A DNA stretch of 64,000 nucleotides from Candidatus Danuiimicrobium aquiferis (lineage in GTDB: Bacteria; Omnitrophota; Omnitrophia; Omnitrophales; Danuiimicrobiaceae), in assembly GCA_001804285.1 (NCBI GenBank), contig MHFR01000048.1:43622-107621 (forward strand), given 5' to 3'. A program made the translations under genes and the position numbers. Position 1 is the stretch's first letter, and every line of letters starts with the position of its first letter. Under the pieces are notes generated by a model, which was given only the letters and a program-made list of their open reading frames with translations, was not told the DNA's origin and made no database searches. Below are positions 1 to 50,726 of the stretch, piece by piece.

Positions 1-1
1 T

Positions 2-2835: not shown

Positions 2836-2890
2836 ATTTTCAAAATTTTTAAAACAGGGACAAACATTGCTTATGCTTGTCCCCGTTTTA

Positions 2891-5334: not shown

Positions 5335-5383
5335 AAATTTTCAATTCAGACAGAATCGATTAAAATTTGGCGAAATCAATCAT

Positions 5384-6469: not shown

Positions 6470-6493
6470 AATGCAAGCGAACAGGAACACAAT

Positions 6494-7192: not shown

Positions 7193-7405
7193 CGAACCAC
7201 CCAAATAATCATTTAGCCGATTCCCGATTTCCCCCCGAATGTTCCTTTTTTGATATTGTCATCTCCGTGGAAACGGGGATCTATCAGAATCTAAAAACTG
7301 CACGGATAGATTCCCGCCTAAAGCTTGCGGGAATGACACTAAGAAAAGGGGACACTCACGAATGTGGATGCCCTCTTTTTTGTGTGCGCCCGGCAGGGCG
7401 ATATG
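7193..7405. repeat. inserted repeat block: double-hairpin MITE core (7265-7338, minus orientation) plus a degenerate terminator-like hairpin (7346-7383)
   Basis: Contains GATCCCCGTTTCCACGG and GATTCCCGCCTAAAGCTTGCGGGAATGACA. Also AAAAGGGGACA...TGCCCTCTTTTTT. Flanked by diverged direct copies of the HAD 3' end (7130-7192 and 7406-7471). Confidence 0.6.
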
Positions 7406-7496
7406 GTGAAAAATCTTGCTACGAAAAAGATCCGATCGCTCAAAGAATTATGCAAGTTGATTGAGGATTAATGTGATGCTGTTCCGCTCGTGACAA

Positions 7497-8294: not shown

Positions 8295-8320
8295 AGTGGT
8301 TATTTAAAATTATTGGGTTT

Positions 8321-16135: not shown

Positions 16136-16300
16136 TTGTTATGCGCGCATAAGTGCACAAGTGCACAGGGGCGCAAGGAAAATCGCGACAAAAAAGGGGA
16201 CAGGCAATTGCTTAATATGAGTCATATGCCTGTCCCCTTTTTTGTTTCTTCATTGTTTCAACTTGTGCACTTGTGTTCTTGTGAGCCTGTGCGCTTATTC
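16136..16300. promoter_or_regulatory. intergenic composite: inverted GTGCACAAGTGCACA-type repeats flanking a terminator-like hairpin (16192-16246)
   Basis: Left GCGCATAAGTGCACAAGTGCACAGGGGCGC. Right CAACTTGTGCACTTGTGTTCTTGTGAGCCTGTGCGC. Centre AAAAAAGGGGACAGGCA-N21-TGCCTGTCCCCTTTTTT. Confidence 0.5.
16192..16246 (-). terminator. intrinsic-terminator-like hairpin downstream of acyl-CoA dehydrogenase gene (repeat family D)
   Basis: 11-bp GC-rich stem GGGGACAGGCA/TGCCTGTCCCC. T-tracts on both sides. Confidence 0.55.
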
Positions 16301-18595: not shown

Positions 18596-18702
18596 GTATC
18601 TGTTTAGCGTTCTGAAGTTGACTTTCCTCCCTCACCCCTGCCCTCTCCCTCGGGGAGAGGGCAGGGGTGAGGGGGATTTGTTAATCTCTTCAAAATTTTA
18701 GA
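18596..18702. mobile_element. MITE: TIR framework (GTATCTGTTTAGCGTTCTGAAGTTGAC ... CTCTTCAAAATTTTAG) with palindromic core CCCTCACCCCTGCCCTCTCCC-TCGG-GGAGAGGGCAGGGGTGAGGGGG
   Basis: Near-perfect 25-bp palindrome arms. Related copies at 2998, 19803, 27246, 29117 and 50636. Confidence 0.7.
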
Positions 18703-19802: not shown

Positions 19803-19917
19803 CTATTTAGCGTTCTGAAGTTAGCTATTGTCCCTCACCCTAACCCTCTCCCTAAGGGAGAGGGAAAATTCAAAGCGGGGGGTGAGGGGGATTAGTTAAC
19901 CGCTTCAAAACGCTACA
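19803..19917. mobile_element. MITE, TIR framework with palindromic core (interrupted)
   Basis: TATTTAGCGTTCTGAAGTTAGC...CCCTCACCCTAACCCTCTCCCTAAGGGAGAGGG...GGGGTGAGGGGGATTAGTTAACCGCTTCAAAACGCTA. Confidence 0.7.
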
Positions 19918-26288: not shown

Positions 26289-26323
26289 CAATTGAAAAGA
26301 GACAAGGGAAAAGAGCTCTAGTA

Positions 26324-26345
26324 GGGAACAGGCATGCCTGTCCCC
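26324..26345. terminator. bidirectional terminator-like hairpin between convergent genes (GGGAACAGGCATGCCTGTCCCC; repeat family D)
   Basis: Perfect 11-bp palindrome stem between the 24060..26288(+) and 26345..27202(-) genes. Confidence 0.55.
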
Positions 26346-27202
26346 TACAGGACAAATTTTATTAATTCCTGGACTGATTGGCATACATAGTCCGCGCCGG
26401 CGGATTTTAAATTTGTTTCCATTTCTTTTAGCGAAGTTGAGGCAATCAGAAATCCGCACGATTTAATGTTTATTTGTTTCTTAGCTGCTTCGGCTGCCAG
26501 AATATCGTCCGGTAAATCGCCGACATAAAGATAACGTAAATTTTTCCCGAAAATTTTTGCAACCCTCAGCAATCCAAAGGGATCCGGTTTTTTCCGGCCC
26601 GGCGGTGTCTCATCTGTAGTCGTCATCGCATCGATGAATGAATCAATTTGAAACCTTCGAAGCGCGAAATTGGCTTCCTCCCGGTTCCGGCCTGTGACAA
26701 TTCCGATTTTAAGGCCTTTTTGCTTCATTTTCCTGAAGTAAATTTTGGGAATCAGCAGTTTTTCGTTCCACACGTATTCGTTTAAATAATAATGTTGGAA
26801 GATTTTTGAAATTTGGGGGAGGAGGGGCAATTCATGAATTGCCCTTACGGTTTTTGTGAGCATCGTTTCAATTCCTTTTACGCCGAGCGGCCGATCCCTC
26901 ACCGAATTTACAAATTCGGAAATATTCTTTTCCTTAATCAATTCGCGAACCGCATGCCTTGCCGGTTTTAGCGACAACGCATAAAGCAGAAGTCCGTAGC
27001 AGGTGTCCCAATCGTCGTTGAAGCCACCAAGCGACTTAAATTGTTCGACGTCAAGCCGCGTGAATAAGGGTTTGCGCGACGGTGAGAAGCGAAGGACTGT
27101 TTTAAGATATTCATCCACGGTTTTCCGGATGCAGTCGGTGTAAGACGCGCGTGTATCGACGAGGACATTGTCGATATCAAAAATAATAGCGTTGTAAGGC
27201 AT
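26345..27202 (-). CDS. HAD-like hydrolase with large cap domain
   Basis: Motif I AIIFDIDNVLVD. Motif III IGIVTGRNREE. Motif IV YVGDLPDDILAA. Start set at MPYNAIIF (27202). Upstream track extension overlaps a palindromic repeat (27246-27320). Confidence 0.65.
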   Translation of the reverse strand: MPYNAIIFDIDNVLVDTRASYTDCIRKTVDEYLKTVLRFSPSRKPLFTRLDVEQFKSLGGFNDDWDTCYGLLLYALSLKPARHAVRELIKEKNISEFVNSVRDRPLGVKGIETMLTKTVRAIHELPLLPQISKIFQHYYLNEYVWNEKLLIPKIYFRKMKQKGLKIGIVTGRNREEANFALRRFQIDSFIDAMTTTDETPPGRKKPDPFGLLRVAKIFGKNLRYLYVGDLPDDILAAEAAKKQINIKSCGFLIASTSLKEMETNLKSAGADYVCQSVQELIKFVL

Positions 27203-27653: not shown

Positions 27654-30600
27654 ATGCATTTTGGGATTAAACAAAAAAACAAATCATTTAATCTAAGCGT
27701 AAAACGAGCCACTCTCTCTATTTTTTCATCCCGTTTTCTTCGTTCAATTGCCCTTGTTGTGTTGATTTGTTTTGTGACGACGAATATCACATGGGCAGAT
27801 GTGAGCGTTGGCGCATCGATCACCACCCTTCAAAATGAAATCCAATCGCTTGCCCTCAAGCCCTTTGCGATTCCCCGGGAAGCCGGACGGATCGAAGAAT
27901 TGTTTCTTCCTGACGGAATGTCCCCGGAAACACCGCTGATCGTCTATTTGCAGGATGCTCATACCAACTTGGGCGCGCAAGAGAATATCCAAAAAATTGT
28001 GCAGGAATTAGCGCCGAAACTCAAAATTGACACGGTCCTTGTCGAAGGCGGTACGGGCGAAATCGATTTGTCGGAATTGAAATCCTATCCGGATGAAAAA
28101 ATTAAAACCAACGTTACGCAGTTCTGGATGAAAGAAGCGGTTCTGAACGGAATCGAGCGCGCTGCGATATTAAGCAAAGCCAATTTCCGCCTCATTGGAA
28201 TTGAAGACAAGAATCTTTATGAAGAAGCCGGAAAGCACTTTGTAACGGCCAAGCAGGAATCGCAGGCATTTCTTGCCGAACTTGAGCCACGCTTGAAATT
28301 GATCAACGAAAAACGGAAAGCAAAATTCAATCAAGATTTGATGGTGTTCGATGATTTGACAAATATGTTCGAAAAGAAGCAGGAGCTCATGCCTCTTGTG
28401 AGCGTGATTGCCAATGAAGCCAGGAACCGCCATCTTGACCGCTGGAAATACGCGCAAGTTGAGAAGTTTATCAGTTTGATGCTGTTTGAAATTCGCGGTG
28501 GCAATCAGCAGCAACTTCTCAGAGCGAAAAAAGATTTAGACGCAAAACAATTTTTCAAAGAGCTTGAAGCTTTAAAACAAGAAGTCAAAGAATCGCTGTT
28601 TCAGAATGACGAAGAACGCGCGATTGACGCAGAGGCGCAGGGACTAAAGTTATTGCGCGATTTGGTGTCGCTCGAAGCCACGCCGGAGCAATATCAAAAT
28701 TTTCTGAAGGACCGCGAAAAGATTGAAAGATTGATTGAAAATAATTTTGGAATTCTGTCATCCCCGCATGCAGTAGGCGGGGATCCATGGATTCCCGCTT
28801 CCGCGGGAATGACAAAACCTCAAACGAATTCATCACTCGCCCTTGAATCCGCCATCGAATTTTACGAATCCGCAATTAAACGCGACGACATCTTATTTCA
28901 AAACCTGCAGGCGGCTCTATCAAAGCAATCTTCCAAACACATTTTTCTCGTCACCGGCGGATTTCATACGCCCGGCATTGTTGAAAAGTTGAAAAGCGCG
29001 AAGCTTTCGTACGTGCTCATTTCGCCGCAAGTGAGCGAAGAAGACAACGCCAGGCAATATTTAGAACGTGTCGCTGGCAAGCGCGCCGATTTGGAGGAAT
29101 TTAAATCAAAATACGGCCCTCACCCTAACCCTCTCCCTGAGGGAGAGGGCAGTCCAAATTTCTACAGGCAGTCCTCGCAGCGAAGCGGAGAGGGGAAGTT
29201 TAAGGGGACGGGTGAGGGGGAAACGTATGCCGTGCCCTCGGTCAGCCGGGCTGAAGTTGGAATCATCCGCGAATCCTTTGATTGGGCGGCAGAGCGATCT
29301 GGGGAGATCGACAATAGTCACTGGTCACCAGTCAATAGTGCCCCTTTTTCTACGAATGTCATCCCCGCAAAAGCGGGGATCCAGCGGGATTCCCGCCTCC
29401 GCGGGAATGACACAATATTCCGCTCCGAAGCGCGAAGTACGCAGAATCATGATCAGTACGATACCCCGGCCTATAGTCTTAATTCCGGTTTTGATTCAGA
29501 TGATACTGATGAAATTCAACGAATTTTGAGCGAGTTTCGCCGCATTTCCGGCATTTCTCGGAAAACGGTCCAACAATTTGCGAAGGAAGCTATTCAATCT
29601 GCAGGCAGCAAAGAGTTGCGGAGACTTCGCTTTGAATCAACGCCTCGCGAAAGATCAATATATTACTGGACTCTTTTGATTCTTGGCTGCATCACCGTCG
29701 GTTTAGGTGCCGCTTCAGCAGGTTGGGCGTGGTCCGCGGCCATCTTGCGGGATATGGGACAGAAGGATCATGTTTCATTTTGGACATCCGTTATTCCCAT
29801 GGCGATTGGGCTTGGGATTTTCATTGTCGGAGTCATTGTTTTAATTGCGCTTAACAGACCGTACCCGCTTAATGAAAAAAGTGTCTATGAACTCGCGTTG
29901 CGGTTTAAGTATCTTGATGGCGAAACATTTCGAAAACCATCCGATTCGGCAAACCTTCTCGCCCGTTCCGAAGTGCGTGGCGAAAGTGAAGCAAAAAAAC
30001 CGATTATTGATGTTCGCCGCCTTGAAGATCAGCACCATCGGCGATTTCAGGAACTCGTCGGGCTGTATCAAAAAATAAAACCCCAATCTGTAGCGGCTGA
30101 GATCAGGCTGTTTATTTTTGGCGCGATTTCTTTCATCAGTATGATAGTCGGTTTTTTTATGATGAGTAGTATCGAAAACCCCCGAGACCTTGTCACAATG
30201 ATAATGCCGTCTATCGCCATATCTCTTACGGCGCTTATGCCCACCATTTATTTTATGTGGAAAGCTAAAAAATTGGGGACACTTTTAAATAACATTCTGG
30301 GCAATTTCAGCGGCATGGAACTGACGAAAGAGGAACGCTCACAAAAACCGAAAAAATTAGAGCAGTTTTCTTTGAGATGGGGCGAGCGGTTTGATTTCGA
30401 GAGAAAACGGGGCAAACAATATCAGACGCCCAAATTGATTGAAGGCGGGCGGATGTTTGAAGAGGAAGGAGAATTTTTTTCATTGGATCAGAGGACGATC
30501 AATGATTTGGGTGTCGAATCGCTTTTGGAAAAACAGGATAGGACAAAGACAGGATTCGGACAGTCGCGGCTCGAATGGCTCATTAAACATCCGCTTCTAA

Positions 30601-33600
30601 CGCCGGGAAAAATCCGGGAACGGCAGGCGTCTATCGGTGAATTTATCCAAAATGAATCATTCCGGAAGATTATGGAAGAAAAATTTACACAATTGGGAGA
30701 AAAAATTCGAGACCGTGCCTTTTGGAGTTTTGACGTGCCGGATTTTCGCTACCGGCCGAATAAATGGATGGCGCTCGGGTTGACATTATGCAAATTTCTG
30801 CTGATTCCGGCGGGTATTTTATTGGCCGGCTATTCGTGGAAAATGCTTCCCGTTCCCTTTGTTTTGTTTTTAATGATTCGCAGCGCGTATCTGAATGAAA
30901 AAGTCATTCGAAGAGAATGGAAGGCGGTCGGAAAGTTTATCAATGAAATATTACCCGAACTTCGGCAAGCCGAATCGCCGTTACTTCAGAAAATTTACTC
31001 CGTGCTAAAGGATGCCGTCGATCCGCATGGCTCGGCCGGCATCGCTTCTTTTATCAACCGTCCCGGCATGTTGAATGGCGCGTGGGCGTATTTAAACAAA
31101 AGAAAAGAGTTACAGAGTGTCCTCGGCGCGATTGGCGAGCTTGAGAGCTTGTATTCCCAAGGGCAGGCGGCCGTTGACAATTTGGGATATCATGATTTTC
31201 CCGAAATATTGGATCGTGATACTTCCGTTTCTGGGCCAGAACAAGGCCGGCCGGTATTAAAGTTTGAAACGGAAAAATTGCATCATCCGGCCATTCCGTT
31301 TGAGAAATCCGTCGGAAATCCGGTCCGGTTCGCTTCGGATCATTCCTTTATGATTTTAACCGGCGCGAACATGGGCGGAAAATCGACCTTTCTCAAAACA
31401 TTGGCGCTTGCGATCATTCTCGCGCAAACGGGCGGGCCGATCCGCGGGTTCAACATGAAACTGACACCGGTCAAACTCATGACGCTTTTTGATGTCAGAG
31501 ATGACATTGCGGCAGGAAAGTCCAAATATGACGCACAGACAGACCGGCTCAAAGAAATGACTGATTTAGCGGCGTCAGATCCGAGAGTGATGTTATTTTT
31601 TGATGAAATGTTAAACGGAACCAACCCGGAAGATCATCTTGTGATCGAAGAAGGCACGATCCTCTACTTGGTGAAGCTCGGGATTTTCGGCATGTTAGCC
31701 ACGCATGATTTGGAAGTGACGGAACTCGAAACAGTCGAAAAGCAACCCGGCGTTTTCAATATGCATTTTGACGAAAAATTGGATGCCGACAGGAAGCCGC
31801 AAGCGGATTATGAGTTAAGCCAGGGACCCGTTGAAGGTTCAAACGCGATTTCCATTCTTGAAAGAAAAGGATATCCTCCGGAAATTATTGACGAAGCCAA
31901 ACGCCGCGCTCTGGTGAGACTGGAGAAAAAAGCAAAAGGGCAAGCACGGGCCGAAGTGCGCCACCTTGAAAATAGTGGCAAGGCGATTATTAATCGAGGC
32001 GCACGAGAGTCCTCGATACTTTCCAAGGGGCTTGTATCGAGGGCCGAAGTTCGTAACCTTGAGAATACAGAAGTCAGAAGTCAGAAGTCAGATATGTCAT
32101 TCCCGCAGGCTTCTGGCGGGAATCTGCGTTTGCTCGCCAGAGGCGAATTTGTCTTTGGCAGAGATTCCCGACAACAGATTTCGGGAATGACACCAGAATA
32201 TCGTTCCGAAGCCCGTGCGGATTCGGATTCCGACACGCCGGCTTATGTGTTGGATCCCGGTTTCGATCCAGAACAATATCCAGACGAAGTTCATACAATT
32301 CAACGAGCATTAACTAAAATTCGCCAAATCACAAACAAAAGCCAGGCAGAAGTTCAAACGGAAGCGAATAAACATATTCGCTTTAGCAATAATTATCCAT
32401 ACGCGCTATTGTGGCATAGCGAACCGGGATTATTTAACTTTGCCAGGGCAAAATGGAAATTTTTTCTGCTTGCCGGATTATGCCTCGCTTGTTTGCCATC
32501 TGCTGTGGCAATGTTTATATATTGGATTGCTCGACCTTTCAGTACCATACAGGAAGGAAGTGAATTTCATCACTCAAAATTCATTTTGTATTTTGGGCTT
32601 TTTCTTACTTTTGCGGGATATTATTTTTTACAAACATTTTTTGCTGCGCTGCCCGTGACGGAAGCGAATGTTTTCGCCATTTTTCGCGGAATCGATTTCA
32701 TCACGAAAGATGAATATCGGGATTTGACGTTAACTCTAAAGTCGTCGAACCCTTCTGCTGAAACTAGGGCTGAAGCGCGCGCGGAACCTGATTATGACAC
32801 GCCGGGATATAATTTAAGGCCGGGATTCGATGGCGACCAAATCAATACGCTTCAAGGCGCGTTAACCACAGTTCGGAAAGTAACGAAAAAGAGCAAGGAC
32901 GAAGTTCAGCGGGCCGCGAACAAATATCTCTGGCCATATCGCTTCCGTTTTTTCTCTTACTATGATGAAACGGGATTGTTCGACATCGCTCGTTTTAGAA
33001 ATCCGCCGGGAAAGATTCCCAATTATCTGCGTGCCTTTTTGAGTCCATCCGGACTTTTTTCCTTATTAGCCGCTTTGATTTTTGCGCTTGTTTTTGCCAT
33101 TCCTGTTGCTTTAGCGCAACGCTCTTTTATGAGAATGGTCCATGATGTCATGACAACGCTTACTTTCCCGCTCGGAATACAAATAGATGACGCGGCCGAA
33201 AGATTGCCTGCCTATACGCGCATGATTACCAATCCCTATTGGTGGGGAATTGTCTTTTTTATGGCCAATATATGGGCGGCAGCAACAGTGCTGAAATTGT
33301 TACGGGTCACGGAAGCGAACATTTATACCATTTTGTACCGTGTCGGATTCCTCACGAAAGACGAATATGAAGATTTGCTGAAAACTCTGGAATCGTCGCA
33401 ACCTCTTGGTCAAGAAACGCTTTCCGGGTCACGTTCTGCGGACAAACGGAAAATCGGGAGAAGGTCGCCCATTGAAGCGGCTTCCAATTATCTTTTGATG
33501 GGATTCGCCGAAGCGCGGCATCTTGCGCGCCTCCACCAACAAGCCATGCGCCTATCCGCTGCCGGGAGATATGTGCCCGCAAGAAACTTGCGTTTAAAAA

Positions 33601-36600
33601 CGATGATTTGGCGGGGAATTGTTATTAAGGGCGGAAAATGGATTGATATTTTTCAGTTGGTCAAAGAGTTCATGCGGGGATGGTTCGATATTTTTGATCT
33701 GCCCAAGAAGTTAATTAATCAACAAAGCATTCAGTTTCTTTCCTATGAATATTTAGGCGAAAGATATCATCGAGAAATGTTTCTTGATAGCGAAGAAGGA
33801 AATGCTCTCTACGGATTATTGGATGAAATGAAAAATGATCCGAAACGGTTTCCGGGAATTGATTGGTCGAAACATTCGGCCATTTATGGACATTGGGAAG
33901 TGTCGAGTTACCGGTATGAACGTTCCGAAGTTCGTAACCTTGCGCCGGAAAAGGGGACAGGCATATCCCTCAAAAGCGAACGATTGCCTGTCCCCTTTTC
34001 TGTTTTGACTTATGCTCCTGTGCTCTCGGCGGCGAAGTCCGCCGCCCGTTCCGAAACCCGCGCAGGAGCGGAAAAAGATCCGATCGGGCTGAGGAAAATA
34101 GAACAGATTGCCAGGGGATATAAAGATATCAGACGTTCGCGGCGAATGATTTATCCGAACATTATTCTTGATCGATGGCAATTGCCACCCGCTTTTGAAC
34201 CATACCAGGACGCCGTTCTCAACAGAAGAGCTCCCGAGTTTGAGGCGGGGATGGGCGTTGCTTTGATTGTGCCAGGTGAAGATATTAAAGCGGCGCTTCG
34301 AAAGAAGAAAGAACCAGAGGAACGGGTACAAGCGTTAATACGCCTCATCGAAACGATGGTAATTAAGGGGATCATGAAAGCGTGGCACGCGCGTGTTTTG
34401 AAATTCGGGTTAAAAGATGAAAAAAATCAATGGTCCGAAAAAGCGTTAAACAAGCCAGAAATCTTGCAAGTCGTGTTACAGGAATTGAGCGGTGAAAAAC
34501 TGGAAATTCTGAAACAATGCGTTGATATTTGGTTCAAGCGAATTCGAGAAGGACCGGAAGGGCGGTTGGGTAGCGGCTTGGTGTTGATTCAGAAAGACGC
34601 AGAACTTCTTTATGATTACCTCCGCAACGTTCATGCGCCTCATCAAAATTTGACGGGCTATCACAATATCGCAGGAAGCATTGTCGAATCTATTTTTCGG
34701 GGTGATATAGCGGCTAAAGTTCATTCTCTGGATGAATATGTTAAACAGTCCTGGGCGATGGAATTAACGGACGCGCTGCATACGTTAGAAACGCCAGCCA
34801 ATGCTTCGATTGCGGAAGCGGCCGTTGAACGAGTGACTCAAATTGCAGAACAATCGAAGAACAACCGGATCATCACGCTCGCCGGAAGTTTGGAAGATGC
34901 TTTAGCAGATGAAGAGCGGAAAAACAAATTGATTGCCAGAATCAAAACCATTTTGATAGATGAAAAATTAAAAGTGCTGGACTTTGCATTTTCCCGCCTG
35001 GAAGAAGCTGAAAAGCGCTTGCATGAAATGGAAGAATTCCAGCGTGAGCATCGGCACATGTTCACTATGCAAACCGACTATTATGCATTTGCGGATATTG
35101 CGGAAGGATATACGCGGCGCGTTGAAGAAATGTTCGGCCAAACGCCTAAGGATTATTCCGGACGCCGCATGAAGATGTTGATGAAAAATTTTGAAGAGAT
35201 GGAATTCCGGAACTTGGGAAGAAGCCAGCGTCAGGGTGGGGGACTACCTTTTACGACAGGTCTTCAGGTTGCAAAATTGTTGTGGGCGAGAGAGCGAAAG
35301 CCCGTTCGTGTATTGCGGGCTTTTAATCGCCTGATCAATAAGCAAGAATTGTTGGAAGCCGTAAAAGGTGTGAAAACCAGATCGAATGGTACCGCGAGGC
35401 CAGAAGAAGCAAAATCGCCGAAAGCGTATGTCGAGTTTCTGGGAGAGCACCGGATGAGTGCGATTGCTTTAGAGCTGGTGTATTACGGAATCGGAGAGGT
35501 GGCGCAGCAGCTCAGAGAAGATCTCGGGACCCACGCACAGGATGTCCTTGCTTATTTGAATAAAATGGAAATGCCTGCATTTCAGGGTGAGGGGGAATGG
35601 AAGGAAAAGTTGCATAAGCAAACAGCTGCCATTTTGAAGGCGTTGCGAGACATCGAGGGCATATTTGAAAAAGATGATGCAGAAAAAGATATATCTAAAA
35701 AACTATCGATTAACAAACGGGCTTCGATTGTATTCGAGCACGCGGCCAGGCTTCACCAAGAAATGGATCCAAGCTGGTTTCCGAATGATCGCACGATTGA
35801 TTTACTTCTACTTTACTGGACGAATACGTTTAAGGTGGGCGGAGCGGACCGTATTCACGAAGCGCTCGGCTCTATTTTGGAAAACGATTTATTCTATGAT
35901 TTCGAAGACGGAAAACGGAAACAAAAATCACCGGATGAAATTCTCAAGTTACTTGACACAAACCGCGCCCTTTCCCAATTGGCAACATTTGAGAGGAGGC
36001 AGCTTAAAAGCGTGCTATTTGAATTGGGCTTGATTAATCCCGAAGACGTGTATCCCGCCATGTTTAAATATGTGATGGAAAAAATCGGAACTGCAAAACC
36101 GCGCATGGTTGTTTTTTACGACCGGCATCTTCCGCTTGAAAACTCTTCCCCCATTATTGAAAGGATCGTCAAATCCGGGAAATATTCTTCCGATGATATT
36201 ATTTTTGTTCCATGGCCGGAATATACGACACCGCTTGGAGAGACGGTTGCTATTGCTGACGGGCTGATGGACTTGATGCGGCAAATGGCAAATCCGGAAC
36301 GGGGCAAACAGGTGCTTCCGGTTAAAAAATATTCGGTACGAGATCAACAATGGTTTGGAGAATTTGTGATCCGGGAAATTGCCGGAAAAATTTTCGAGCC
36401 GGAGGAACAAACAGCCCTTTTTCAGCAACAACAAAGGATCGGGACGAAATCATGGGGAGATATCGGGCCAATGCTCAAGAGTAGGCTGGGGAGTTTAGTC
36501 ATGAAGCCGTTATTGGCGGAAGCGGAAAAAAGAATCAAAGCAATTCATAGACCTGCGACTCAAGAAACGGGGGAAGGGGACGAGGAGACTCGAAGGTATG

Positions 36601-39600
36601 AGAGAGCTCTTTGGGATCGGTCTGGCGCTGTGACGAGGGAGACGAAACGGTTGATCGAAAAATTTTATGGTATGTTAAATGACGTGATGAACCGGATCGA
36701 TATCGGGAAACAGGCGGGCATTGAAGATGTTGAATTTCCGCCGAGCGAAGAACAATTCATTTATGCGCTGTTCCTCTATATGATGAAAAAAAGTTATCCG
36801 GACATGTTGTTTGTTTCTGTTCACCGTGATGTCATAATCAAAAAATCCGAAGATATTCAGTGGACGCTCGAAGAACTCCAGCAAGGTTTCCGATTGGTTA
36901 CGACCGACAAGGCAAAAGAAATTCATCAAGGACTCGAAATTCCGCAATTGTCGTGGAGAAAAAGATCACGGCAGGCGCATATTCATTTGGCGGTGGAGCA
37001 ACTTGTTTCTGCCAGGCGTGTCAATGCAGAAGTTCCTATTGTTTTTGTTGAGCTCAAACAGGATGCGCAAAAAATAGAATCAGTGCCGCAAGAAACATTG
37101 GCAAAGGCAATTTTGGGTTTATATGCTTTGAGCCTGTCGAATTTTGCTTCCTATTTTACTATTAGAGATGTTGTCCCTTCCCGAAGTGGTGTTTTGGGTG
37201 ACCCATATCGGATAGCGGATTATTTGTTAAGACCGGAGCCGGAAACAGAGGCGCAAATTGAACAAGGGGCAAAGGCTCTTGGGGAAAATTATTTCGATCG
37301 TGTTCTAACAAAAATGAAAGGGCAAGCCCGGGCCGAAGCGCGGAGTGATTTGAAGAGGCGGTCATTTGCCGAGGTTTTGTGGAATTATTTGTGGATGCCG
37401 AAGGAGGCCATTCAACTTGCAAAGTTGCATGCTGAAGCAAGAAAACTGGCACATGCGGGAAAATTTGATCAAGCCCGGGAACTTCGGATCAAGATATTTA
37501 TTTGGAGAGAAGTTGTTCTCGAAAAAGATCGTTGGTTAGGACCGGATCAATTTCGTGAAGCGATGTTTGGAGATTCTTCAATCGATTCTTTATTCATGAA
37601 TTTTGTTCAACATAAAATGCATCATGATGCGCCGACCCACTCAGATCAGATTGAAACGGTTGTCGATTTACTTTGGGAGGTTGAAAGCGATCACGTACAT
37701 TTTCCGGGATTCAGGGTGATTGTAGATGTCCGGAAAGGCCCGCAGGGGGTTGCGTGCCGTTATGATGAAAAGAAGCGATCAGAAGCGAGAAACGGAGAAG
37801 TCGCGAAGGAAATCCCTGAGGAGTTGGATTTTTACATTAAAGAGTTTTTATCGATTTTGCCGGAAAATAAACGTCCGAATATTAAAAAATTCAAAGCCGC
37901 AAATCAAGTGATCCGGACGAACTTGAACGATCCGGTACGTATTAAATATAAATTGCCGGTTACCATTGTTTTTAGACCCGAGTTTTTTATCCGCGGATTG
38001 CCGCCCGATTTACAACCCCGGGGGATGCCGTGGCAATTGGTATATACCAATCACGATTTGGCGGATGAGGCTTTTGAGTCTTTATTGGTTATCCACGGGA
38101 ATAAGGAAATTGAGGAGGTCAATCTTTCACAGGGCCCTGTGGATTATTTCATTTCTTCAAGCGAAAAGGCTTACCGGCATAAACGCCGGTCGATTTTGAG
38201 TTTTACACCGCTTGAAGGAAGAACCATGGATGACGTAAACCAGGGCACCAGTTATTTAGACGGTGCGTTTTCGGCGATTGTTGCAAAACCAATCAAAAGC
38301 AAAGGGGAATTAACAGAAAAACAACTTCAGAAAAAAACAGATGAACAGAAAAGAAAAATCATTGAGTTGTGGACGAAGTCGCTGGTAAATATTGGGATTT
38401 TGGGACAGGTATACATTGCGTCAACCGGAAACTTGATGCAGGCGGAAGAAATGGATTTGATTATCCAGTATGCATATGACATGGAATCTCTCGAGGAAGC
38501 AGAACAGAGACAGATGGCGCGTGGACAGCCATCCGGGGCAGTGGATTATCAGCCGGTATTTGGCCGAAGAGATTTACCTCCCGCGGTCGGAGTTTCCGAT
38601 GTAAATTTAGGAATTCCAAAGAAGAAATGGAAAATTCAAGGAATTGGCCCCGTGAATGCGATTCTTGCGCTGATCAAACATCCTGTGATTCAAAAAAAAT
38701 ATTTCGGGGGACAAGAACCGCCGCAAGTCAATGTCGGATTCTTTGGCTTTGGTCGTGTGGCCGCTCAAATGGCGAGTGTGGTGATATACGATTATGCGAA
38801 TATAACCCCCATTCAATTTAGCGGAATTATTGATGAAGCCCGGCAAATTTATTCGAAATGGGGAGAACTTCCCGTGCCCGTTCTTCAGGAATTGATTCGA
38901 CGGGTGAATCAGCGAGCAGATAGTCCGTTGCAAAAGTTGGCGCGCAGATTCCGGCGTTATGGTGTGCGAGAGCTTTCCAGCAATTCGGTACAACAAAAAG
39001 TATTGTCGGAAAATATTGATGTGCTTGTGCTTGCTTCGCCGCCGCAAACATTTGGAGAGAAAGAGGCCGAACGTTTTGAGGGGAAAATAGTTATCGAAGC
39101 CAACCAAAATGTGGCGACGAAAAAAGCCATTCAGATATTGAATCAACGAGGGATTAAATTTGTACCTTATTCGACGGTCAATATCGGAGAATCCTACGCT
39201 GCGCGCCATGAATTTGCGAATCCCTTTATGAAAGCCCCACGTTACGATAAAGAGTTTTATGTACTTAACGGAATCGTCGGGCATACATTCGCCAATATTT
39301 GGATGGGACTCGAATCGTTTGAGAAAAACCGTCTAAATCAGTGGAAAACGCTGATTCTATGGATTGTATCAGCTGCGCTGATTGGAACTGCCAGCGGATG
39401 GCTGGGAGGAATCCTTTTATCGATTCCCTTGATTGGAATTTCTGTCGGTTTTTCCCTTGGAACGATTGCTGGACTGATTGCGGCTTATATATTCGAGCCG
39501 CAAGCCGCGAAATCCATGGTTCAAACCGTGGGTGAACTCAATGAACGGATGAATCGTGAAATCGATGCGCTTGTTGTCGAAATGTATCACTTAACGCCGG

Positions 39601-42600
39601 AACTACATGATTTCAAACAAGACGAACAGAATAAAACCCAGTTGAGGGCTATTTGCAATAGACTTTTATCGAGGATTAAAGAGAAGAAATTAAGCGCGGA
39701 GCAAAAGAGGCAGTATTATCGCATTTTGGGGAAGATATACTTGCTAATGAGCCAAAAGGGAAGAAATGAGACTTATATGCCTTATGTTGTGGCATTAAAA
39801 ATTGCTGTGTTTCAGGAAGTTAATGCCGTGATTATCTCAAAAAGTTACGATTTAAAAAAATTGAAAGAACATCTTCGGTATCCCCAAAAATCAGATGCGA
39901 TTCAAAAACGAGTTGCGGCATTCGTAATCGGACAAGCGCGGCATGAGCCGAAGGATATTCCCGAAATCGTTGAGGCGTTGGGGGATCAGCTGATTAAAAG
40001 CGATGATTATCATGTCAGAGCAGAATGCGCGAAAGCTCTTGGATTAATCCGGCATTCAAAGGGGAAATCTTATTTGTTCATGTCGTTTTTTAGCACGAAG
40101 GAAACAGATTCAAGCGTGAAGGAATGGGTGGAATGGGCACTTGCCAGATATAATGTTAATTGGGAAGCGAATGCCGAGGCATATTATGAGAAAGAGCTTT
40201 TACCGATCCAGAGAAGAATTGAACAATTTGAAAGAATAACGGATTTGCGGAAAAGCACCCAACCCCGGCCGGCTTTTTGGGAACAAATCAAAGAAGGGCT
40301 GCAGTCTTTTCAGTCTTTATATAGAAAAGCCGGGCAGACTTATTTTGAATATGCACAAATGAAGCGGATGGAAGGGGATGATGAAACGGCTCTTAAACAT
40401 TATAAAGAAGCGATCAATTTGCTCGGCAAAGCGGGGTGGGAGGGCAATGCATTTCCATTTATTGTTCAACAGGAAATCGCTGAAATCTATTGGACGTTAA
40501 ATCAACCGGCGAAAATGCGTGAAGCACTTTTAAAGATGATTTTACCCGGCGCAGCATTTGAATTGGTCAAAGGCAAGGAGATAAAAGAGCAACGAAACAT
40601 TCAAGATTTCTTGATGCCGATTGAAATATACCAGCGATTGGCGTTTGAGCGGTTTTTCATCTGGAATGGATTTAAACCGGAAACGGCAGAAGTGATGGCG
40701 GCCGCGCTGAATCATTATATTGAGAGGAAATATAATGAACTCATACACGATTTTGGTTATGTCGGCAAAATGGACGAAGTCGATGCCAGGGAGCAACTGA
40801 TTCGAAAAGATATTGAAATTCTTGAAGAAATTAATAAAAAAATTATCCCAAAACTTTACATCGAAGATGAAAAAGCAGGAAAAATTCCATTTCTCAAATT
40901 AATGATTCTGGTGACAACCAATATGTATTATCAGCGCTTTCCCAAACTCATGCAATGGATTGTTCAAACTTTGAGCGAAGAAAAAATTCCACCGGAAATT
41001 CAAAAGCCGACCAATCCGGAAGCAAAATTCCTTCAGGATCTTTTTGTGGAAATTGGGCTTATCCAGGGTTCGAACGAGGGGGCGGCCGGCGGACGTAGCG
41101 AAATCCGTTCAAAAGGGGAAGAGTATCTTAATAGGCATGCGTTGATCAATGAATTTGGGACATTCAAAAGAGCGAATTTAGAAAAAGAATTTATGCCATT
41201 CCTGAATCAGCTGAAGTCGCAAGACTCCGTGCTGATTGAACGTGGATTCGAGAACATCAAACAACATTTAAATGCGGAGCTTAAACGGGCGAAGCAGCTT
41301 AGCAGACAGGATGAAGCGAAACGAGTGCGTTCGTTTGTGGCCGGAAGACTCGTTGCGATGATCCCGAGAATGAAGGAAAGATACATTCCGAATGTAGTCG
41401 AACTCTATGAAATACTTTTAGGGTCGATGACTTATTCCGTTTCCAGGTATCTTGGGTCGGGCGTCGCGCGTGACCCGGAAACGCAGATCCGTATCCGTCT
41501 TTTAAAGATTCTGCAGAAAGGCTCTGAAACCGGCACGCGGCCAAATATTGCAATCAGTATTCTTAAAAGTGAAACATTCGCAGGCAGTCGCGGTTTATTA
41601 AAGACTGAACCGGAAAAAGAATATTTGAAAATTGTTGATCAAACTATTTTAAAACGGATCGCGAAGGCATTCCGCGCGGGAGATGCGAGGCAACGTTTGT
41701 CGCTACTTCAGGACCTGCTCGAAGGAGTGCGCGCGTCGAAAGGTTTCGCAATCGAAGTTTCAAATCAGTCTTTATCCTCGCTTTTGGTCGGGGTTCTTGG
41801 CCGTTTCCGTTTTTCAGTTGAGGAATCAATCATCATGAATGAAATTAAAAAGACCGTGGAAAACCAGGCAGCTTCTCCGCTCATCCGGCAAGTTCGTAGG
41901 GCGATGGTTTTCGGGATGCTCAATCCGCCTGTCTATCAAAATCTTGACGATATATATTTTTATGATTCCGACCGGGCCATCTATCACGCGGCTATTCTTT
42001 TGGAGCATGGATTGATTCCGTTGATTCATTTGCCTGTTTTTGCATCGGGCATACAAGACAAAAATGATTTGCATAAAGAGCAGAAATATTCCGAACAAAT
42101 TTTTTCCGGGATTAAACGGCTAAGAAAAGAAAATCCAAAAGCGCTTTTGGCGGTGGGTGGAATTAAAAATTTTCAAGCCGCAATGAGAGCTGTCGAAAAC
42201 GGAGTGAATGTATTATTTGTTTCAAAATCACTGTCTTCGAGGCAGATTAAAAAATTAAAGTGGTATGCGGAAAAAATTCATCCGGAAAATCCGGATATTT
42301 TGGTCCTTTCAGGTGTTGAACGGGGTAAGAAAATGACACGGGGGCTAAATCGGCAAACAGGCGGCGGATTTCTGGCGCTCGATAAGCCTGAGGAAGCTGC
42401 GGTAAACGAAGATGAGATTCAGCGGCTGAAAAGGCTTCAAGAAAAACGCCCGCAAAATGTCTTCGGTTTTTATTGGTTGTTTTTAAACCGAGCGGTTGAA
42501 GAAGCTATGAAAACACCGGCCGATTTTATAGTGGTAGATGCGGAATTTTCTTTAGGGACTCAAGCCGAGATCACTGCGCAATGGCTCGAAAATTTGAAGA

Positions 42601-45600
42601 ATGAAACGATCCAACAGAGAATACGCCAGCGCCGACTGGATAAAAGAACGGTTTCTGGAAAACCGGAAGGACGGGCCGAGGTTCGTAACCTTGAAAGTAA
42701 TTCCAATCGGTTATCAACAGGGACGAACGAAAGTACTTTTAAACTTCCGAAGAGAAGTTTAAAACGTGCCGAAGCTCGGTCCCCGATAGCTGATTTGGCG
42801 AAAAAAGGTCAAGTAGCGAACATGTTTTCCGAGGAAGATCCGTCTGTGGTTTATTTGGCGGCGAAAAAAATGAAAGATGCGGCGGGAACCGTTCTTGCCC
42901 ACCGGATGAGTGCGATCGATAAAGACTTGGTTGGGCCAGTTTTTGGATTGGTGATCGAAACGGATGAGGGGCAATCCTTTCTGATTCAACGGTTGGCTGA
43001 AGGAACTTTTGACGAGAACATTCAAACCAGAGAATGGATTGCGGTTCATACGGTTCAGGAAACCCGCGCCGGACCGGAAACAGACGATCAAAGTTGGACG
43101 ATTATTTCAGAGCAGCCTCAGTATCTTACCACACCGGAAGCCATTCAAAATATCCGCTTAGGCGAACATGTTCAAATTGCTTATCAGCAAAAAACAGAAA
43201 AAAATCAGGCAGCAATTATTTTAACCGCACCCAATTCAACAGATCGCCGGAAACTAACCATTTATTCAGTTGAGATTCTTCCGGAAGGAATTCAAGCGGT
43301 AGACTCGACGGCTGATGACGCGGAGGCTATAGATCCTTATTTATATGATTTTCAAGATCAAGAACCGGGGAGCGCTGTTGTAGAAGAGAGAGCGCCGAAG
43401 CGAACGGTTCCTGATTTTTCTGATACCTTAGCGCCAAAAGCCAAAAAGGCGCCTCGTTCTTTTGCTTCGGCTAAGAAAAGAATTTTCCGCGCGTTGAAAC
43501 GAATTCCGTTTTTATTCTTTGTTTTTCTGATTGGCGGAAGCGTTGTCCTTTCTTATTTTTATATTCACAGCCTTGAAACAGAAACGATGCGAGGCGTTAC
43601 ATATCAGCATCTTCCTTTTGTTGCAAGCCAGATTGAATGGAAAGATTTAACTCGCGAAAGATATTTATCCAATAATCCGAATTCAACGGTAGATGATGTG
43701 TTGACGTCCGAACTTGCCGAGCCCATACGAATGCTTGCCCAATATAATCAGCAACGGTGGCTTCAGATTTACCGGATTGAAATTGCGAATGCAAAAGTTC
43801 CCGTATCTCAGCCGGCGCAAACCGGAAACAATTTTCGTGTCGGGGCAACTCCTGTTTCCAACGAAACAAAACCAGCCCTTCAAATCGGTGTTTTTCATGA
43901 CCGGACATTGGGGGAACCCAACCCGCCATTTCCGCAGGAAACGATTGTCTCCCTTGATCCGTTAGATCGTAAAGCACTGCATCAGTTTAAAGTGGCGGTG
44001 TATGGGAAGCCGGCCGCGCAATACAACTTGGATTTTGCTCGTCAGCAAAAAGATGCCATTACCTATTGGACATATTTTTATTTATTTGCCGGTGTCATTA
44101 TTTTTGCCGCGGGATTGGTCAGTGAATTTGTATTCCGCAAAAGCCGAATTATCAGGCGTGAAAATATTCGCGCGGACCGACGAGAGAGAAACGCACGCGA
44201 ATTCCGGCAAGCCGAAGGTCATTCGGGGCGAACAGAAGGCGGTGAACGAGGAAGGGCCGAAGTGCGTGCCGCGAAAAACGTTTTTAGATTAAAGGTAGTT
44301 GTGGTCCCGGGGCTTAGCCGGTACCGTGAAATTGAAGGCCATCAGGTTTTTACAAAGCCTTTGGCGGATATGACGGATGAGATGAGGCGGAAACTCAACG
44401 AATGGTTTAAGCCGTTTATGGGAGAAGGCTTTTATCAATTTGTGACAACAACCGGAATGCCGGATTTTATATTTTTGACGAAAGTACAAATTGTGTCGGG
44501 AAATGTGATCAAGCAAACGTTGGAAGATGAGTCCGGCGCCGAGCCGGCGGAGGCTGACCAAAGCTATCAACTCATCACGTTTATTCCGCTAACACCTTTT
44601 GCTGTCCAGCAAACCGGTTTATTTAAAACATTGGTTCGCGAATATATGAAACAAGCCAATATAAAAGAGCCTATTTATTTTTTACGGAGCCATGTTTATC
44701 GGACAACCACTCCTGAAGTGAATATAGAACAAAAGGAAGAATCAAGAGAAATTACCATTACGCGTTCAGGGCATTCAAGCCTTGTGATTGAAGAAATGGG
44801 GCGTGCCGAAGGTCGCAACCTTGCACCGGAAAAGGGAACAGGCATATTACTCAAAAGAGAACAATTGCCTGTCCCCTTTTCCGGTAAATCCGAGCTGCGC
44901 CACATTGAAAATAGTTCCGAGTTTTCAGTTCCGAGTTTCAGGTTAGGACGAATGGATCAACTCGAAACTCAATTCAGGGCCGAAGCCCGTAACGAAATTG
45001 CTGCGGAACTCAATCCGGGATTGGAAGCAGTTTTTATCCGGGCGCCGAAGAACGTGCTGGCAGGTATTGTAAAAGAGCTTTATCCAACCGATGATGCACG
45101 CCGGACCGGATTCCTGAATTTAATCCAAAATCCGGAAGCGGATCACGATCGCTGGCTCCCCGTAGGCCATCGATTACTTCTCGGCTGGTGGAGAGAAGCG
45201 CCTTATGCGGGGACGATGGTTTTGACATTTGATTTGCGAAAATTAAATGCCGCGCAAATTCGGGAATTCAAGCGTAAACGCGAAGGAAAGCACGCACTTG
45301 AAGGTGATTTCTGGCTTTACATTAATCGGGTTATCAGACGGATAACTGGCCAATCGATTGAGTTAGGCGGGGTTGAATCTGACGATAAGACGCTTTCTCC
45401 TGAAGAATTGCTTTTGCGATTGAAAATTCTTGAGCCAACCTGGACTTCCGGGAATATTGACGCACTGATTCACGTCGGAAATTTTTTCCGGGCAAAAGGA
45501 GATTTGGGACGTGCAGAGTTTTTTCTCAGAAAAGCAGCGGAGCTTCTTCCGGAAAACGAAGATTCGTTTTGGCGGGATCAACAGGCGAAAAAAATAATTA

Positions 45601-48600
45601 ATATTCTCACGGCTGCTTATGAAAATGTGGCAACAGAATATATTAAAATCGGGGATCGCGACAGTTTGCAAAAAGCCAGAACGCTTTTGGATTTTGTCTT
45701 CTATGGATTACTTAATCAATATCCTTTAAAGGATTCAGTTGCCCGCGTGGCCGGTCGTTATAATCAGCTCGTCGGTATTTTATATCACAGAGATTTAAGA
45801 GATGCAGGGGATGCGTTAAAGAAAGAAATCAGTTTGCTTAGGCAATATCGGGTGGCATCGCGGGTACCCGAACAGGCAAAATATGTGTTTGGAACAACCT
45901 TGAAATTAATTCGGGCATACTGGGGAGAATCGCCGTCGACATGGGGTCTTCGCACTTATCAAAATAGACACGAAGGAGCGATGCGTAGGCGTGACGATGC
46001 GATCGAATGGATGAAAATAGCGGAAACATTAACGGGAGATCCCGAATTTAGGGCTCATATGACGGATGCGCAAATCCGGGATTTTGAAAAAATGAAAACA
46101 TATTATGGCGGTTTGCAAGGGGAGTTCAGCTGGATCACAAATGGTGACTATGGCACTCCCGGACATATGATGCTGGAATTCCGGGGTGCAATGCATCATC
46201 AGGATATTCAAGCGATTCAGCGGCGTTCACCTTTAGTGTTAAAGCATATTGAGTATTGCAGGAATAATAGAACAAACAGGAGATTACAGCCCCAAGAGCG
46301 GCTGATCATGCGCGAAATTCGTTCGTTTGAGAAACGGCATGAGTGGGATGATGTTAACCGTTCAGAAGACGAAACGCGGAGGTCGGAAGCGCGCGAGGAA
46401 TCTGCCGAGAAACGCGAACTTCCCGAAGAAATACAAGCGGCGGTTGAATTAATTCGTCAGGCAATGGAATCATTCCAAGCCGGAACAAAAGAACGGGAGC
46501 GAATGAAATGGGCTTATCAGTATTTTACGGAATTATTTCAAAAAGGAAAACTCCGGATTGAAATTATCGAAGGCTATGAGACATTTGCAAGTAAAGGCAG
46601 TACGGATCATGACCCAATGGTGATCAAGGTCGGGGCGCAAAATCTCGCAAGCCCCGAAATTACGGCGCGGGCGCTTATTGTTGGATTTTATTTGCTGTAT
46701 TTAAAGCCGGAAAATAAAACGGAACCGGTCTTTAAAAAGACGGTAATTGGAAAAGCAAAGTGGTTAACGGAAAAGACGGATTTTCATTTTCCTAAAACGC
46801 CGGCAGAAAAAAGCGAAGAAGGGGCGTTGCGGGCAATTGGGCCTCAAACGGTAAAAGAGTTGGGTGAACTTAAAGATCATTTGGCGTCGATCCGGTCGGA
46901 GTCCGCAAAAGAAGCGGCGCGTGATGCAAGGAATGTTCAAGTTGATCCTGTGATGGTTCAGGCCTTGCAACAGTTTGCGAATGAGAGCAAAGGCAATCTT
47001 ACGGAGGCGTGGCGGCTTTATGCCGAAATTCTGAATGAACATCTTGAACACCGGCAATCGGAAAAACTGGTTCAGTTTTTGACGCAATTTTTAAATACGT
47101 TTTTAATTGTGGTTGCCAAAAGGAGTACATTCCAGGACCTATTCTTAGAAGTCCCCGAATCATTTGCTGAAACGCTCATTGATTATTTTAATTCTCCCGC
47201 GCCGGGGCAGGGAGGGATTGATGATTACCGTGCATTACTTCTGGAATCAATTCGGTCCATTAATCCGGACGCATTGGACCGTTTCATCGGTAACAAAGCG
47301 CTTTTGTTTGGGATTGCAAAGATGATTGAATCGGCCGAGGTCAGTGTGAAAATTGCCCGCGGAAAAATATCATCGTCCCGGATTTCGGCAACTGCGGCCG
47401 CAGGCCGGCAAACATTAAGAGAATTAGCGGCCCAAGCGGGCGGAAATTTACTCCCGTTACTCGAAGGGGCGAGAGTGATTACGGATACAGGTCGTTTGCT
47501 TCCAGGTCCGGAACCGAGTGGTGCCGGTGCTGATGGTGTGCTGGCTCCGGGGACTGTCCGGCCCGTAAAAGATCATCTTCCCGTAAACGCGGAATATAAG
47601 GGTTTTCAGGCAGCGCTTCGAAATGCGCTTAAAGCGGCTTTAAAGAAAAAACCAATTCCGTCGTTTGTTGAATTTGCAGAACGCGAAGTCCCAAGGCTCC
47701 TTGAAAATATGCATCACGCATTTGAGCAAAGAGAGAACAAGATTCGCGGAGGGCTGGACGAGCTTTCTGAGTGGCTGAAATTCTTGCATAATCAGGTTGC
47801 GGGTGGCGGCCCCCTGAATGGGGATTGGGCAACTTTTATTTCTAAAACCGAGGGAGCAGAATTTCAAGGGGCCGGAAAAGATTTGGGAAAAGAAAAATTA
47901 TCCGAACTTTATACCGTTATTTTCCTTGCGCAAACGATTTATGCCTATTTGCATGCCGGCCGGTATCAAACGACTGCTGCCGATGCTCGCAATGAAATTA
48001 ATAATCGTTTAAAAGCGCTGGCTGAGAGCGAAGGGCCTCCTGTTTTTAGCGCGGTTCAGCAGTGGTTTACGCGTTTTGAGCATGACGTTCAAACGGCCGA
48101 AACGCAAGCGGCAACACAGGCATCGATTATTCAAGCAAGACGGGACGATTATGAAGCGCGGACAACCAAAGTGCGAAGGCCGAAAGAAGGGGCAGGGGCG
48201 GCGGCTCACGTGGAATCAAACGCTATTCCGGTGGCGGAAGAACCGCAGGCCATTGCTCAGGAGCCGACGTTTAAAGGATTTCAGCAACGGTTGGTCCATG
48301 CGAAACTGAATGCGACGATATTAAATGCGGACCGCGAAAAAGCAATGGCGACTTTGGTTTTCTTGGTTGCGGGTGAGGAGAAAAAAGGGCTTGAAGCCAT
48401 GCCGGCATATCTGGCAAGGACAAAAGACAATTATGACAAGGGACGGAGAACTTTGTTGATGCAGCTTCACCCGGATCGGTTAAGAAGAAAACCTACGGCG
48501 GTAGAACAGAAAATATATCAATTTTTTGATCAATACAAAGATTTTCCGGGAACCGGACAAGGATTTAAAACGGGCGGGGATTTCGGGACGCAGTTGGTTG

Positions 48601-49536: not shown

Positions 49537-49590
49537 AAAAAGAGGCAGGCAGCTGGGCGTATAGATACATGAATTGCCCGCCCCTTTTTA
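49537..49590 (+). terminator. diverged family-D hairpin immediately after giant-gene stop; likely its intrinsic terminator
   Basis: AAAAAGAGGCAGGCA-N23-TGCCCGCCCCTTTTTAT, starting 5 nt after TAA (49530-49532). Confidence 0.5.
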
Positions 49591-50635: not shown

Positions 50636-50726
50636 GTATCTGTTTAGCGTTTTGAGGTTGACTATCGCCCCTCACCCTAACCCTCTCCCTCGGGGAGAGG
50701 GCAGGGGTGAGGGGACGCATTTGTTA
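50636..50726. mobile_element. MITE, TIR framework with palindromic core, between convergent genes
   Basis: GTATCTGTTTAGCGTTTTGAGGTTGAC...CCCCTCACCCTAACCCTCTCCCTCGGGGAGAGGGCAGGGGTGAGGGG... Confidence 0.7.

Follow-up and report, generated by a model that had tools for sequence, protein, structure and literature searches.

A terminator-like palindromic repeat in frame within a giant open reading frame of Candidatus Danuiimicrobium aquiferis

Does a hairpin that resembles an intrinsic terminator end transcription when it lies in the middle of a gene? The question is raised by a stretch of 64,000 nucleotides from Candidatus Danuiimicrobium aquiferis (Omnitrophota; GCA_001804285.1, contig MHFR01000048.1, positions 43,622 to 107,621), hereafter called the window, in which a stem-loop followed by a T-rich tail (copy 1) lies in frame inside an open reading frame (ORF) of 7,292 codons. 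A reading made from the sequence alone had proposed that the hairpin could be a programmed attenuation or pausing point giving an N-terminal product of ~2,100 residues. Our analysis suggests that copy 1 is probably a terminator-like palindromic repeat that was inserted or duplicated in frame in a permissive spacer between two protein modules and is translated through.

The hairpin and its repeat family

The arms of copy 1, GAAAAGGGGACAGGCA (33948-33963) and TGCCTGTCCCCTTTTC (33985-34000), are 16 nt each with a complementarity of 100%. They enclose a loop that is only partly self-paired and measured 21 nt, not 19 nt as first counted. The RNA fold of 33940-34012 had an energy of -36.2 kcal/mol compared with -16.4 +/- 3.1 kcal/mol for shuffled sequences (z = -6.3), and 0 of 200 shuffles were as stable. 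The core stem-loop contributed -24.5 kcal/mol, and with its A:U extension the hairpin reached -36 kcal/mol. Inverted repeat, fold energy and shuffle test agree on a hairpin at the place proposed by the sequence-only reading. Its translation in frame 1 of the giant ORF, with RSEVRNLAP just upstream, was also borne out: the element encodes EKGTGISLKSERLPVPFS (residues 2099-2116), 6.3 kb into the translated ORF and 15.5 kb upstream of the stop codon. An AlphaFold2 model of residues 1930-2330 made without an alignment was uninformative, the whole model being meaningless (pLDDT 35, lowest in the spacer).

The 11-mer GGGGACAGGCA, allowing at most one mismatch, occurs nine times in the window compared with 0.54 expected occurrences, and its arms form five hairpins, three of them intergenic and two inside the giant ORF (Table 1). 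The three intergenic members lie 6-68 nt past stop codons, and the placement of the one at 16188-16245 is consistent with a bidirectional terminator. The loops of this member, copy 1 and copy 2 can be aligned (TAT..CTCA.A....A.C.AT), so that they form one true repeat family and do not just have similar stems. Copies 1 and 2 are ~90% identical over ~80 nt, from the codons of an RxExR motif to the 3' arm, and unrelated beyond. The sole difference in their stems is a synonymous G-to-A change that is uncompensated and breaks one pair. The family had been said to include three gene-end hairpins; this holds, with corrected bounds, for 16188-16245 and 26321-26348, whereas the hairpin at 49537-49590 (-18 kcal/mol, z -2.4) is degenerate and no more than a look-alike. 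Judged by its copies, the repeat unit is ~55 nt long and appears to consist of an A-tract, the GGGGACAGGCA stem, a loop of ~20 nt and a T-tract.

Table 1. Coordinates of the giant ORF, its motifs and spacers, and the hairpins of the window (numbered from the first base of the window)
Feature	Position (strand)	Description
Giant ORF	27654..49532 (+)	7,292 codons; 18 R-[SA]-E-x-R motifs
Hairpin, in-ORF copy 1	33948..34000 (+)	arms 33948-33963 and 33985-34000, loop 33964-33984
T-rich tail of copy 1	33996..34007 (+)	TTTTCTGTTTTG; first 5 bases (TTTTC) are part of the 3' arm and pair with the upstream GAAAA
5' bracket motif RSEVR	33921..33935 (+)	followed by the 16-nt box GAAGTTCGTAACCTTG at 33927-33942
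3' bracket motif RSETR	34047..34061 (+)	next module begins here
Hairpin, in-ORF copy 2	44825..44885 (+)	20-nt arms, one A.C mismatch, without U-tract
Spacer 2 with brackets	44802..44990 (+)	RAEGR 44802-44816, RAEAR 44976-44990
Intergenic member, A6-stem-T6	16188..16245	between two minus-strand genes, 68 nt past the stop codon of the upstream gene
Loop-less palindrome, one mismatch	26321..26348	between convergent genes
Degenerate fifth member	2856..2884	between convergent genes
Degenerate look-alike hairpin with T-tract	49537..49590 (+)	4 nt past the stop codon of the giant ORF
Triple-motif junction	31947..32216 (+)	RAEVR, RAEVR, RSEAR; two structured spacers
31-nt-arm palindrome of another repeat family	32091-32201	second spacer of the triple-motif junction
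Spacer between RAEVR and RAEAR	42672..42779 (+)	two other hairpins without U-tract
Motif starts		29421, 29964, 31947, 32040, 32202, 32766, 33921, 34047, 37329
Motif starts (continued)		37776, 41094, 42672, 42765, 44253, 44802, 44976, 46380, 48858
Sites of box GAAGTTCGTAACCTTG		31953-31968, 32046-32061, 33927-33942, 42678-42693, 44808-44823

A scan of metagenomic DNA for the hairpin with its loop ends returned 10 loci. Near-identical loops thus recur outside the window, and the element has multiple copies with homology beyond a generic stem, as a dispersed repeat does. Because the stem was prescribed in the search pattern, these loci say nothing about its covariation, and the comparative set is small (four giant ORFs and 11 close hairpin copies). 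Three independent parts of other giant ORFs, with 935 to at least 2,998 open codons, carry the hairpin in frame (L116, L117 and L124, the last with variants L123 and L125). It also lies in frame in genes for ordinary enzymes: a protoporphyrinogen oxidase (L065), DapF (L066), a radical-SAM-like protein (L011) and a methyltransferase-like protein (L121). When the protoporphyrinogen oxidase was compared with PDB 3i6d, a 20-residue gap fell exactly at the hairpin-encoded segment. A corresponding case from another palindrome family was found within the window, where the MutY gene (2891-4183, minus strand) encodes ~50 extra residues between the NUDIX-like core and the C-terminal strand relative to solved MutY structures. 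This extra segment includes an in-frame palindrome with 21-nt arms (2993-3035) of the CCCTCACCC family. L124, which shares ~30% identity with residues 1-480 of the giant protein, has an additional VIPAEAGIH-type palindromic element at a place where the window protein has none. A segment missing in homologues was thus seen for the oxidase, for MutY and for L124 against the N-terminus of the window protein; copy 1 itself is without an orthologue.

Two observations concern palindromes more widely. Copies of a CCCTCACCCC...GGGGTGAGGG palindrome at 18629-18673, 19820-19900 and 50668-50714 are intergenic and lie just past genes, forming a second repeat family of this genome in terminator position. 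The exact 11-bp stem GGGGACAGGCA/TGCCTGTCCCC was found in a scan of genome contigs at more than 115 loci (L001-L115) from very different phyla, an excess over chance in 596 Gb not being established. These include Omnitrophota, Planctomycetota, Acidobacteriota, Lachnospiraceae, Coriobacteriia, Bacillaceae and Pseudoduganella, and in several lineages the core GGGGACAGGCAC is flanked by lineage-specific short inverted repeats.

Terminator features of the in-frame copies

We scored the hairpins with an approximate d'Aubenton-Carafa-type discriminant in which ViennaRNA energies replaced the original parameters. Scores were +13 for copy 1, -18 for copy 2 and +9 to +40 for the intergenic relatives, with close in-ORF copies ranging from -18 to +13. 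The tail of copy 1 is UUUUCUGUUUUG, its U-tract is interrupted, and the copy tops the in-ORF scores only through extra Ts further downstream. The tail of copy 2, TTTTCCGGTAAA, has no such Ts. In all six independent close in-ORF copies (two in the window and one each in L116, L117, L121 and L124) the flanks are exactly GAAAA...TTTTC, whereas the five intergenic copies have flanks of A5-8 and T5-8 and higher scores (Fisher p ~0.002 against the in-ORF copies). Because of these shorter A/T flanks and lower scores, the in-ORF copies are expected to be weaker terminators than the intergenic ones, which for their part fit bidirectional intrinsic terminators in sequence and placement. The A4/T4 rule is not universal, as the in-ORF copies of L065 and L066, from another metagenome-assembled genome (MAG), have longer tracts.

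Intrinsic terminators usually have loops of ~3-10 nt. Copy 1 has a GC-rich stem, but its loop is longer than this and it does not lie at the end of a transcription unit; a consensus terminator scan does not report the site. The other palindromes in spacers of the giant ORF have no U-tract, and in L116 and L117 the element is in the opposite orientation relative to the ORF. No upstream antiterminator, riboswitch-like or sensor element was found for copy 1. No Rfam family reached its gathering score in the window, and near the site only two sub-threshold look-alikes of microRNA models appeared (E ~0.1). By what is known of attenuation and of translation-coupled suppression of such hairpins, a ribosome that follows closely behind the polymerase keeps intragenic terminator hairpins from forming. 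A transcript that ended inside the ORF would have no stop codon and would feed ribosome rescue.

Programmed attenuation at copy 1 is therefore not supported, given the weak in-ORF flanks, the lack of a U-tract in copy 2, the mixed orientation, the copies in ordinary enzymes and the lack of a sensor. The same evidence speaks against a designed product of ~2,100 residues. In the ordinary enzymes that carry the element in frame, attenuation would serve no purpose.

Motif-bracketed spacers of the giant ORF

The record of one gene caller likewise gives 7,292 residues for the giant gene. Its recognisable modules include a MutS-like ATPase, a Glu/Leu/Phe/Val-dehydrogenase-like domain and HEAT repeats. 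The pentapeptide R-[SA]-E-x-R occurs 18 times in the giant protein compared with 0.43 expected from composition, and all other long ORFs of the window together contain a single weak match (RAEFR). Its Arg codons (CGT, CGC, CGG, CGA, AGG, AGA) and Ser codons (TCC, TCA, TCG, TCT, AGC) vary widely, so that the pentapeptide is conserved and selected at the protein level; a repeat acting as DNA or RNA was rejected because the codons are too varied. In L116, L117 and L124 the motif occurs 6, 12 and 7 times, respectively, compared with at most 0.04 expected, and was found 0 times in 14,725 residues of other ORFs at these loci.

The motifs lie at the boundaries of whole-protein-sized modules. Residues 771-1432, between two motifs, are collinear with a complete stand-alone MutS-related protein of 604 residues, and in L117 a GNAT domain occupies a module of 197 residues. 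Three paralogous membrane-spanning modules (residues 590-770, 1517-1704 and 1705-1926; 25-34% identical by segment-versus-segment BLAST) each start with RSEAR or RAEAR and continue with a D(Y)DTP(A/G)Y segment. Two helical modules (residues 1927-2068 and 3226-3352) both end in RY(E/D)..RSE(V/A)R, and the paralogous junction at residue 3375 has a single motif without a spacer. In L117 (residues 2709-2782 of open frame 1-8526) a lipoprotein-signal-like sequence, KRNLSKLVFGFALAGFSGC, comes straight after an RSEAR motif; such an internal N-terminal signal would be workable only if the N-terminus were freed. L116 (residues 7-369 of open frame 3-2807) has a unit of 181 residues in tandem duplicate, each ending in RSEAR, a VIPAKAGIQ-type palindrome and then RAEVR or RSEVR; a whole module together with its structured spacer therefore appears to have been duplicated.

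At five places in the window, paired motifs bracket spacers of 26-53 residues, which make up 2.6% of the giant ORF, and both in-ORF copies of the hairpin lie inside such spacers. The hairpin of L117 is likewise found between RSEVR and RAEVR, 41 residues apart. The GGGGACAGGCA hairpin fills two spacers of the window, and the others hold palindromes of other families; LPVPFSVLTYAPVLSAAK is an example of a peptide from inside these spacers. Most 5' bracket motifs read RxEVR and continue with NL[EA]; on the 3' side, RxEAR or RxETR leads straight into the next module. Position 4 of the 5' motif is V in four of five cases and G in one; in the 3' motif it is A or T. An origin of the motif pairs as target-site duplications was rejected, DNA identity being 9-11 of 15 within pairs compared with up to 13 of 15 between unpaired motifs.

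When 120-nt windows of the giant ORF are ranked by fold stability, four of the top five are in bracketed spacers and the fifth adjoins a motif. The short bracketed spacers of the window, L116, L117 and L124 fold at -0.29 to -0.47 kcal/mol per nt, against an ORF background of about -0.2 to -0.25, with z-scores of about -3 to -4.7. Further in-frame palindromes of the giant ORF, at 28758-28823, 29115-29240, 29355-29420 and 32091-32201 (-28 to -54 kcal/mol each), belong to other families, namely 'VIPAKAGIQ'-type GTCATTCCCGC...GCGGGAATGAC elements and a 'PLPEGEG'-type CCCTCACCC...GGGTGAGGG element. Directly upstream of the last of these palindromes, the heptamer GAAGTCA is repeated three times in tandem (32070-32090) and read as EVRSQKS.

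All five bracketed spacers open with the 16-nt box GAAGTTCGTAACCTTG (0-3 mismatches), which uses the same codons for E-V-R-N-L. The box has seven matches in the window, where 0.43 are expected, and none in 133 other loci. It is conserved at the DNA level, although the preceding Arg and Ser/Ala codons vary.

Exact copies of neighbouring proteins were found in several Rifle groundwater assemblies, including MAGs named Omnitrophica bacterium RIFCSP... at NCBI, and no other assembly of the species falls below 99.3% identity with the window. In independent assemblies, contigs break off at window positions 34047, 28806 and 29458, each at or beside an in-ORF palindrome, as multi-copy repeats would lead one to expect. 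In one assembly of the same species (L135; GCA_001804245.1, MHFP01000036.1) the giant gene is recorded with 4,841 residues, not 7,292. It differs from the window by one base over the 20.9 kb that can be compared, and a stop codon, frameshift or assembly difference must fall close to window position 42177, where there is no motif.

For residues 1710-2899 of the giant protein, neither a word-indexed protein search nor a metagenome back-translation scan found relatives, and an exhaustive HMMER search of 1.84 billion representatives gave no relative and a single match at E = 9e-4. Because no relatives were found and the assemblies of the species are so similar, no covariation test of the stem was possible.

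Origin of the hairpin and significance

We propose that in this Omnitrophota lineage the repeat normally lies just downstream of genes, where it would resemble a terminator, and may settle in frame in coding DNA where ~18 extra residues are tolerated. Copy 1 would then be transcribed and translated through as a Gly/Pro-rich loop, probably without a designed terminator role, and the following ribosome would normally stop the hairpin from terminating transcription. That it persists may be due to a dispensable spacer, perhaps one that is released by proteolysis at the flanking motifs.

Several observations weigh against this proposal. The tail of copy 1 is richer in U than that of any other in-ORF copy, and the copy scores weakly positive as a terminator. 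A strong hairpin was present in every short bracketed spacer examined, which could mean that it is needed rather than tolerated. The flanks of 17 copies share no ends beyond the A/T tracts and have neither terminal inverted repeats nor target-site duplications, and a non-exhaustive scan of ORFs recognised no transposase. Mobility of the repeat is suggested by its distribution only. Finally, no divergent orthologue of the giant gene was found in any collection searched, and neither presence or absence of copy 1 nor compensation in its stem could be assessed.

An alternative that we consider unlikely is that the hairpins punctuate the 22-kb transcript as partial terminators or pauses, RNase III-type sites or 3'-exonuclease barriers, the last being a role that REP hairpins play in operons, and set the stoichiometry of N- versus C-terminal modules. 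According to West-Roberts et al. (10.1101/2023.11.21.568195), it is an open question whether giant transcripts are processed into shorter ones. The far more stable folding of all short bracketed spacers than of the ORF background, the occupation of the same kind of site by hairpins of different families and the weak terminator score of copy 1 are all in keeping with such a role. It is harder to reconcile with a U-tract that occurs only in the GGGGACAGGCA family among spacer hairpins and is shorter in in-ORF than in intergenic copies, with an orientation that is not conserved, with the uncompensated, pair-breaking stem difference between the ORF copies, with the missing stop codon of a truncated transcript and with the same element inside single-domain enzymes. 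About equally improbable, in our view, is that the hairpin is a relic of the fusion of neighbouring genes, with the spacers as former intergenic regions whose terminators or repeats were kept in frame. The loss of stops and starts in frame at a dozen junctions would be improbable without a dedicated reason, and de novo in-frame insertions of the family are documented in single-domain enzymes. The whole-protein-sized modules, among them the MutS-related segment and the GNAT module, would suit a fusion, as would the lipoprotein-signal-like sequence right after motif 2709 in L117 and the marking of gene ends by the family elsewhere. However, the ~80 nt that the two ORF copies share at ~90% identity take in the 5' motif, whereas the modules on either side are unrelated. 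This indicates a unit that was duplicated or inserted, and not two relics of separate origin.

Selection of the encoded peptide EKGTG...LPVPFS as a linker or recognition loop, with an incidental RNA hairpin, is very improbable. PVPFS is encoded by the 3' arm of all six close in-ORF copies, and EKGTG by the 5' arm of four; on the other hand, the 5' arm is used in three frames overall (EKGTG, KRGQA, KGDRH), other frames occur in L011, L065 and L066, the loop-encoded residues vary freely, and none of 5.8 billion proteins shares even three 5-residue words with the spacer peptide. Insertion or duplication of a tolerated repeat, translated through, thus remains the explanation that we favour.

The behaviour of the repeat is comparable to that of Rickettsia palindromic elements (RPEs), short palindromic repeats many of which lie in frame in unrelated genes and are translated as extra surface segments that leave the host protein intact (Ogata et al. 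2000, 2002, as covered in PMC10969869). The likeness lies in a dispersed palindrome in frame in intact ORFs, in copy 1 and in other genes, and is one of behaviour, not of membership: RPEs are ~100-150 bp long and found in Rickettsia, whereas the Omnitrophota element is ~55 nt long, shares no sequence with them, has A/T tracts and a terminator-like placement at gene ends, and clusters in motif-bracketed spacers of giant ORFs. SPRITE is likewise repeated, with copies that resemble intrinsic terminators and lie mostly past genes; it belongs to another phylum and has another sequence, and in-frame copies in giant genes are not among its described features. By analogy, the Omnitrophota element appears to combine RPE behaviour with the terminator-like look of SPRITE (PMC10969869).

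Repetitive extragenic palindromic (REP) sequences and bacterial interspersed mosaic elements (BIMEs) are also multi-copy stable hairpins near gene 3' ends that can stabilise upstream mRNA or terminate transcription. REPs, however, are extragenic by definition and linked to RAYT transposases, and here no RAYT gene or GTAG-type head was seen in a non-exhaustive search. The identity of the repeat as a miniature inverted-repeat transposable element (MITE) was rejected, there being no MITE ends or target-site duplications around the 17 copies. With attenuators and other intragenic terminators copy 1 has in common a GC-rich stem followed by a U-rich tract within a transcribed region, but it differs in its interrupted U-tract and in its 21-nt loop, where 3-8 nt are usual, and no antiterminator, leader peptide or ligand-binding element was found.

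In viral polyproteins, short recurring cleavage motifs lie between whole proteins. The giant ORF resembles them in its short recurrent motif at the boundaries of whole-protein-sized units; no protease domain was found in it. An M24 peptidase gene lies 2 kb downstream, and M24 enzymes are aminopeptidases. We tentatively suggest, as one possibility that the sequence pattern raises, that R-[SA]-E-[VA]-R is a candidate processing signal of a bacterial polyprotein, by which one chain would be cut into about a dozen proteins and the 26-53-residue pieces discarded. If so, the loss of these pieces, which lie between paired motifs, would explain why the spacers have become sinks for palindromic repeats. 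Taken further, the idea would make motif and hairpin together a duplicating punctuation cassette that also acts on RNA.

In giant Omnitrophota proteins (West-Roberts et al. 2023, 10.1101/2023.11.21.568195; Nielsen and Lui 2026, 10.64898/2026.06.07.730766), a very long ORF is likewise tiled by unrelated enzyme-like modules. Post-translational cleavage has been proposed for these proteins. In the former paper, whether and where the giant transcripts or proteins are cut is given as unknown and cleavage points are absent; in the latter, the words motif and cleavage do not occur. R-[SA]-E-[VA]-R punctuation with palindrome-filled spacers is not described in either, and a literature search for the motif strings with this meaning, for the stem sequence in a bacterial context and for the species name found none.

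In-frame palindromic repeats are already known; what is new, as far as the searched literature shows, is that they occur in Omnitrophota and are concentrated in motif-bracketed spacers of giant ORFs. Taken alone, the hairpin is a further case of selfish palindromic DNA tolerated in a gene, best known from Rickettsia. The giant genes of Omnitrophota are an open puzzle, to which a pentapeptide at module boundaries in four independent giant ORFs adds concrete candidate cut sites. R-[SA]-E-[VA]-R also gives a practical guide for dividing giant ORFs into units whose structures can then be predicted.

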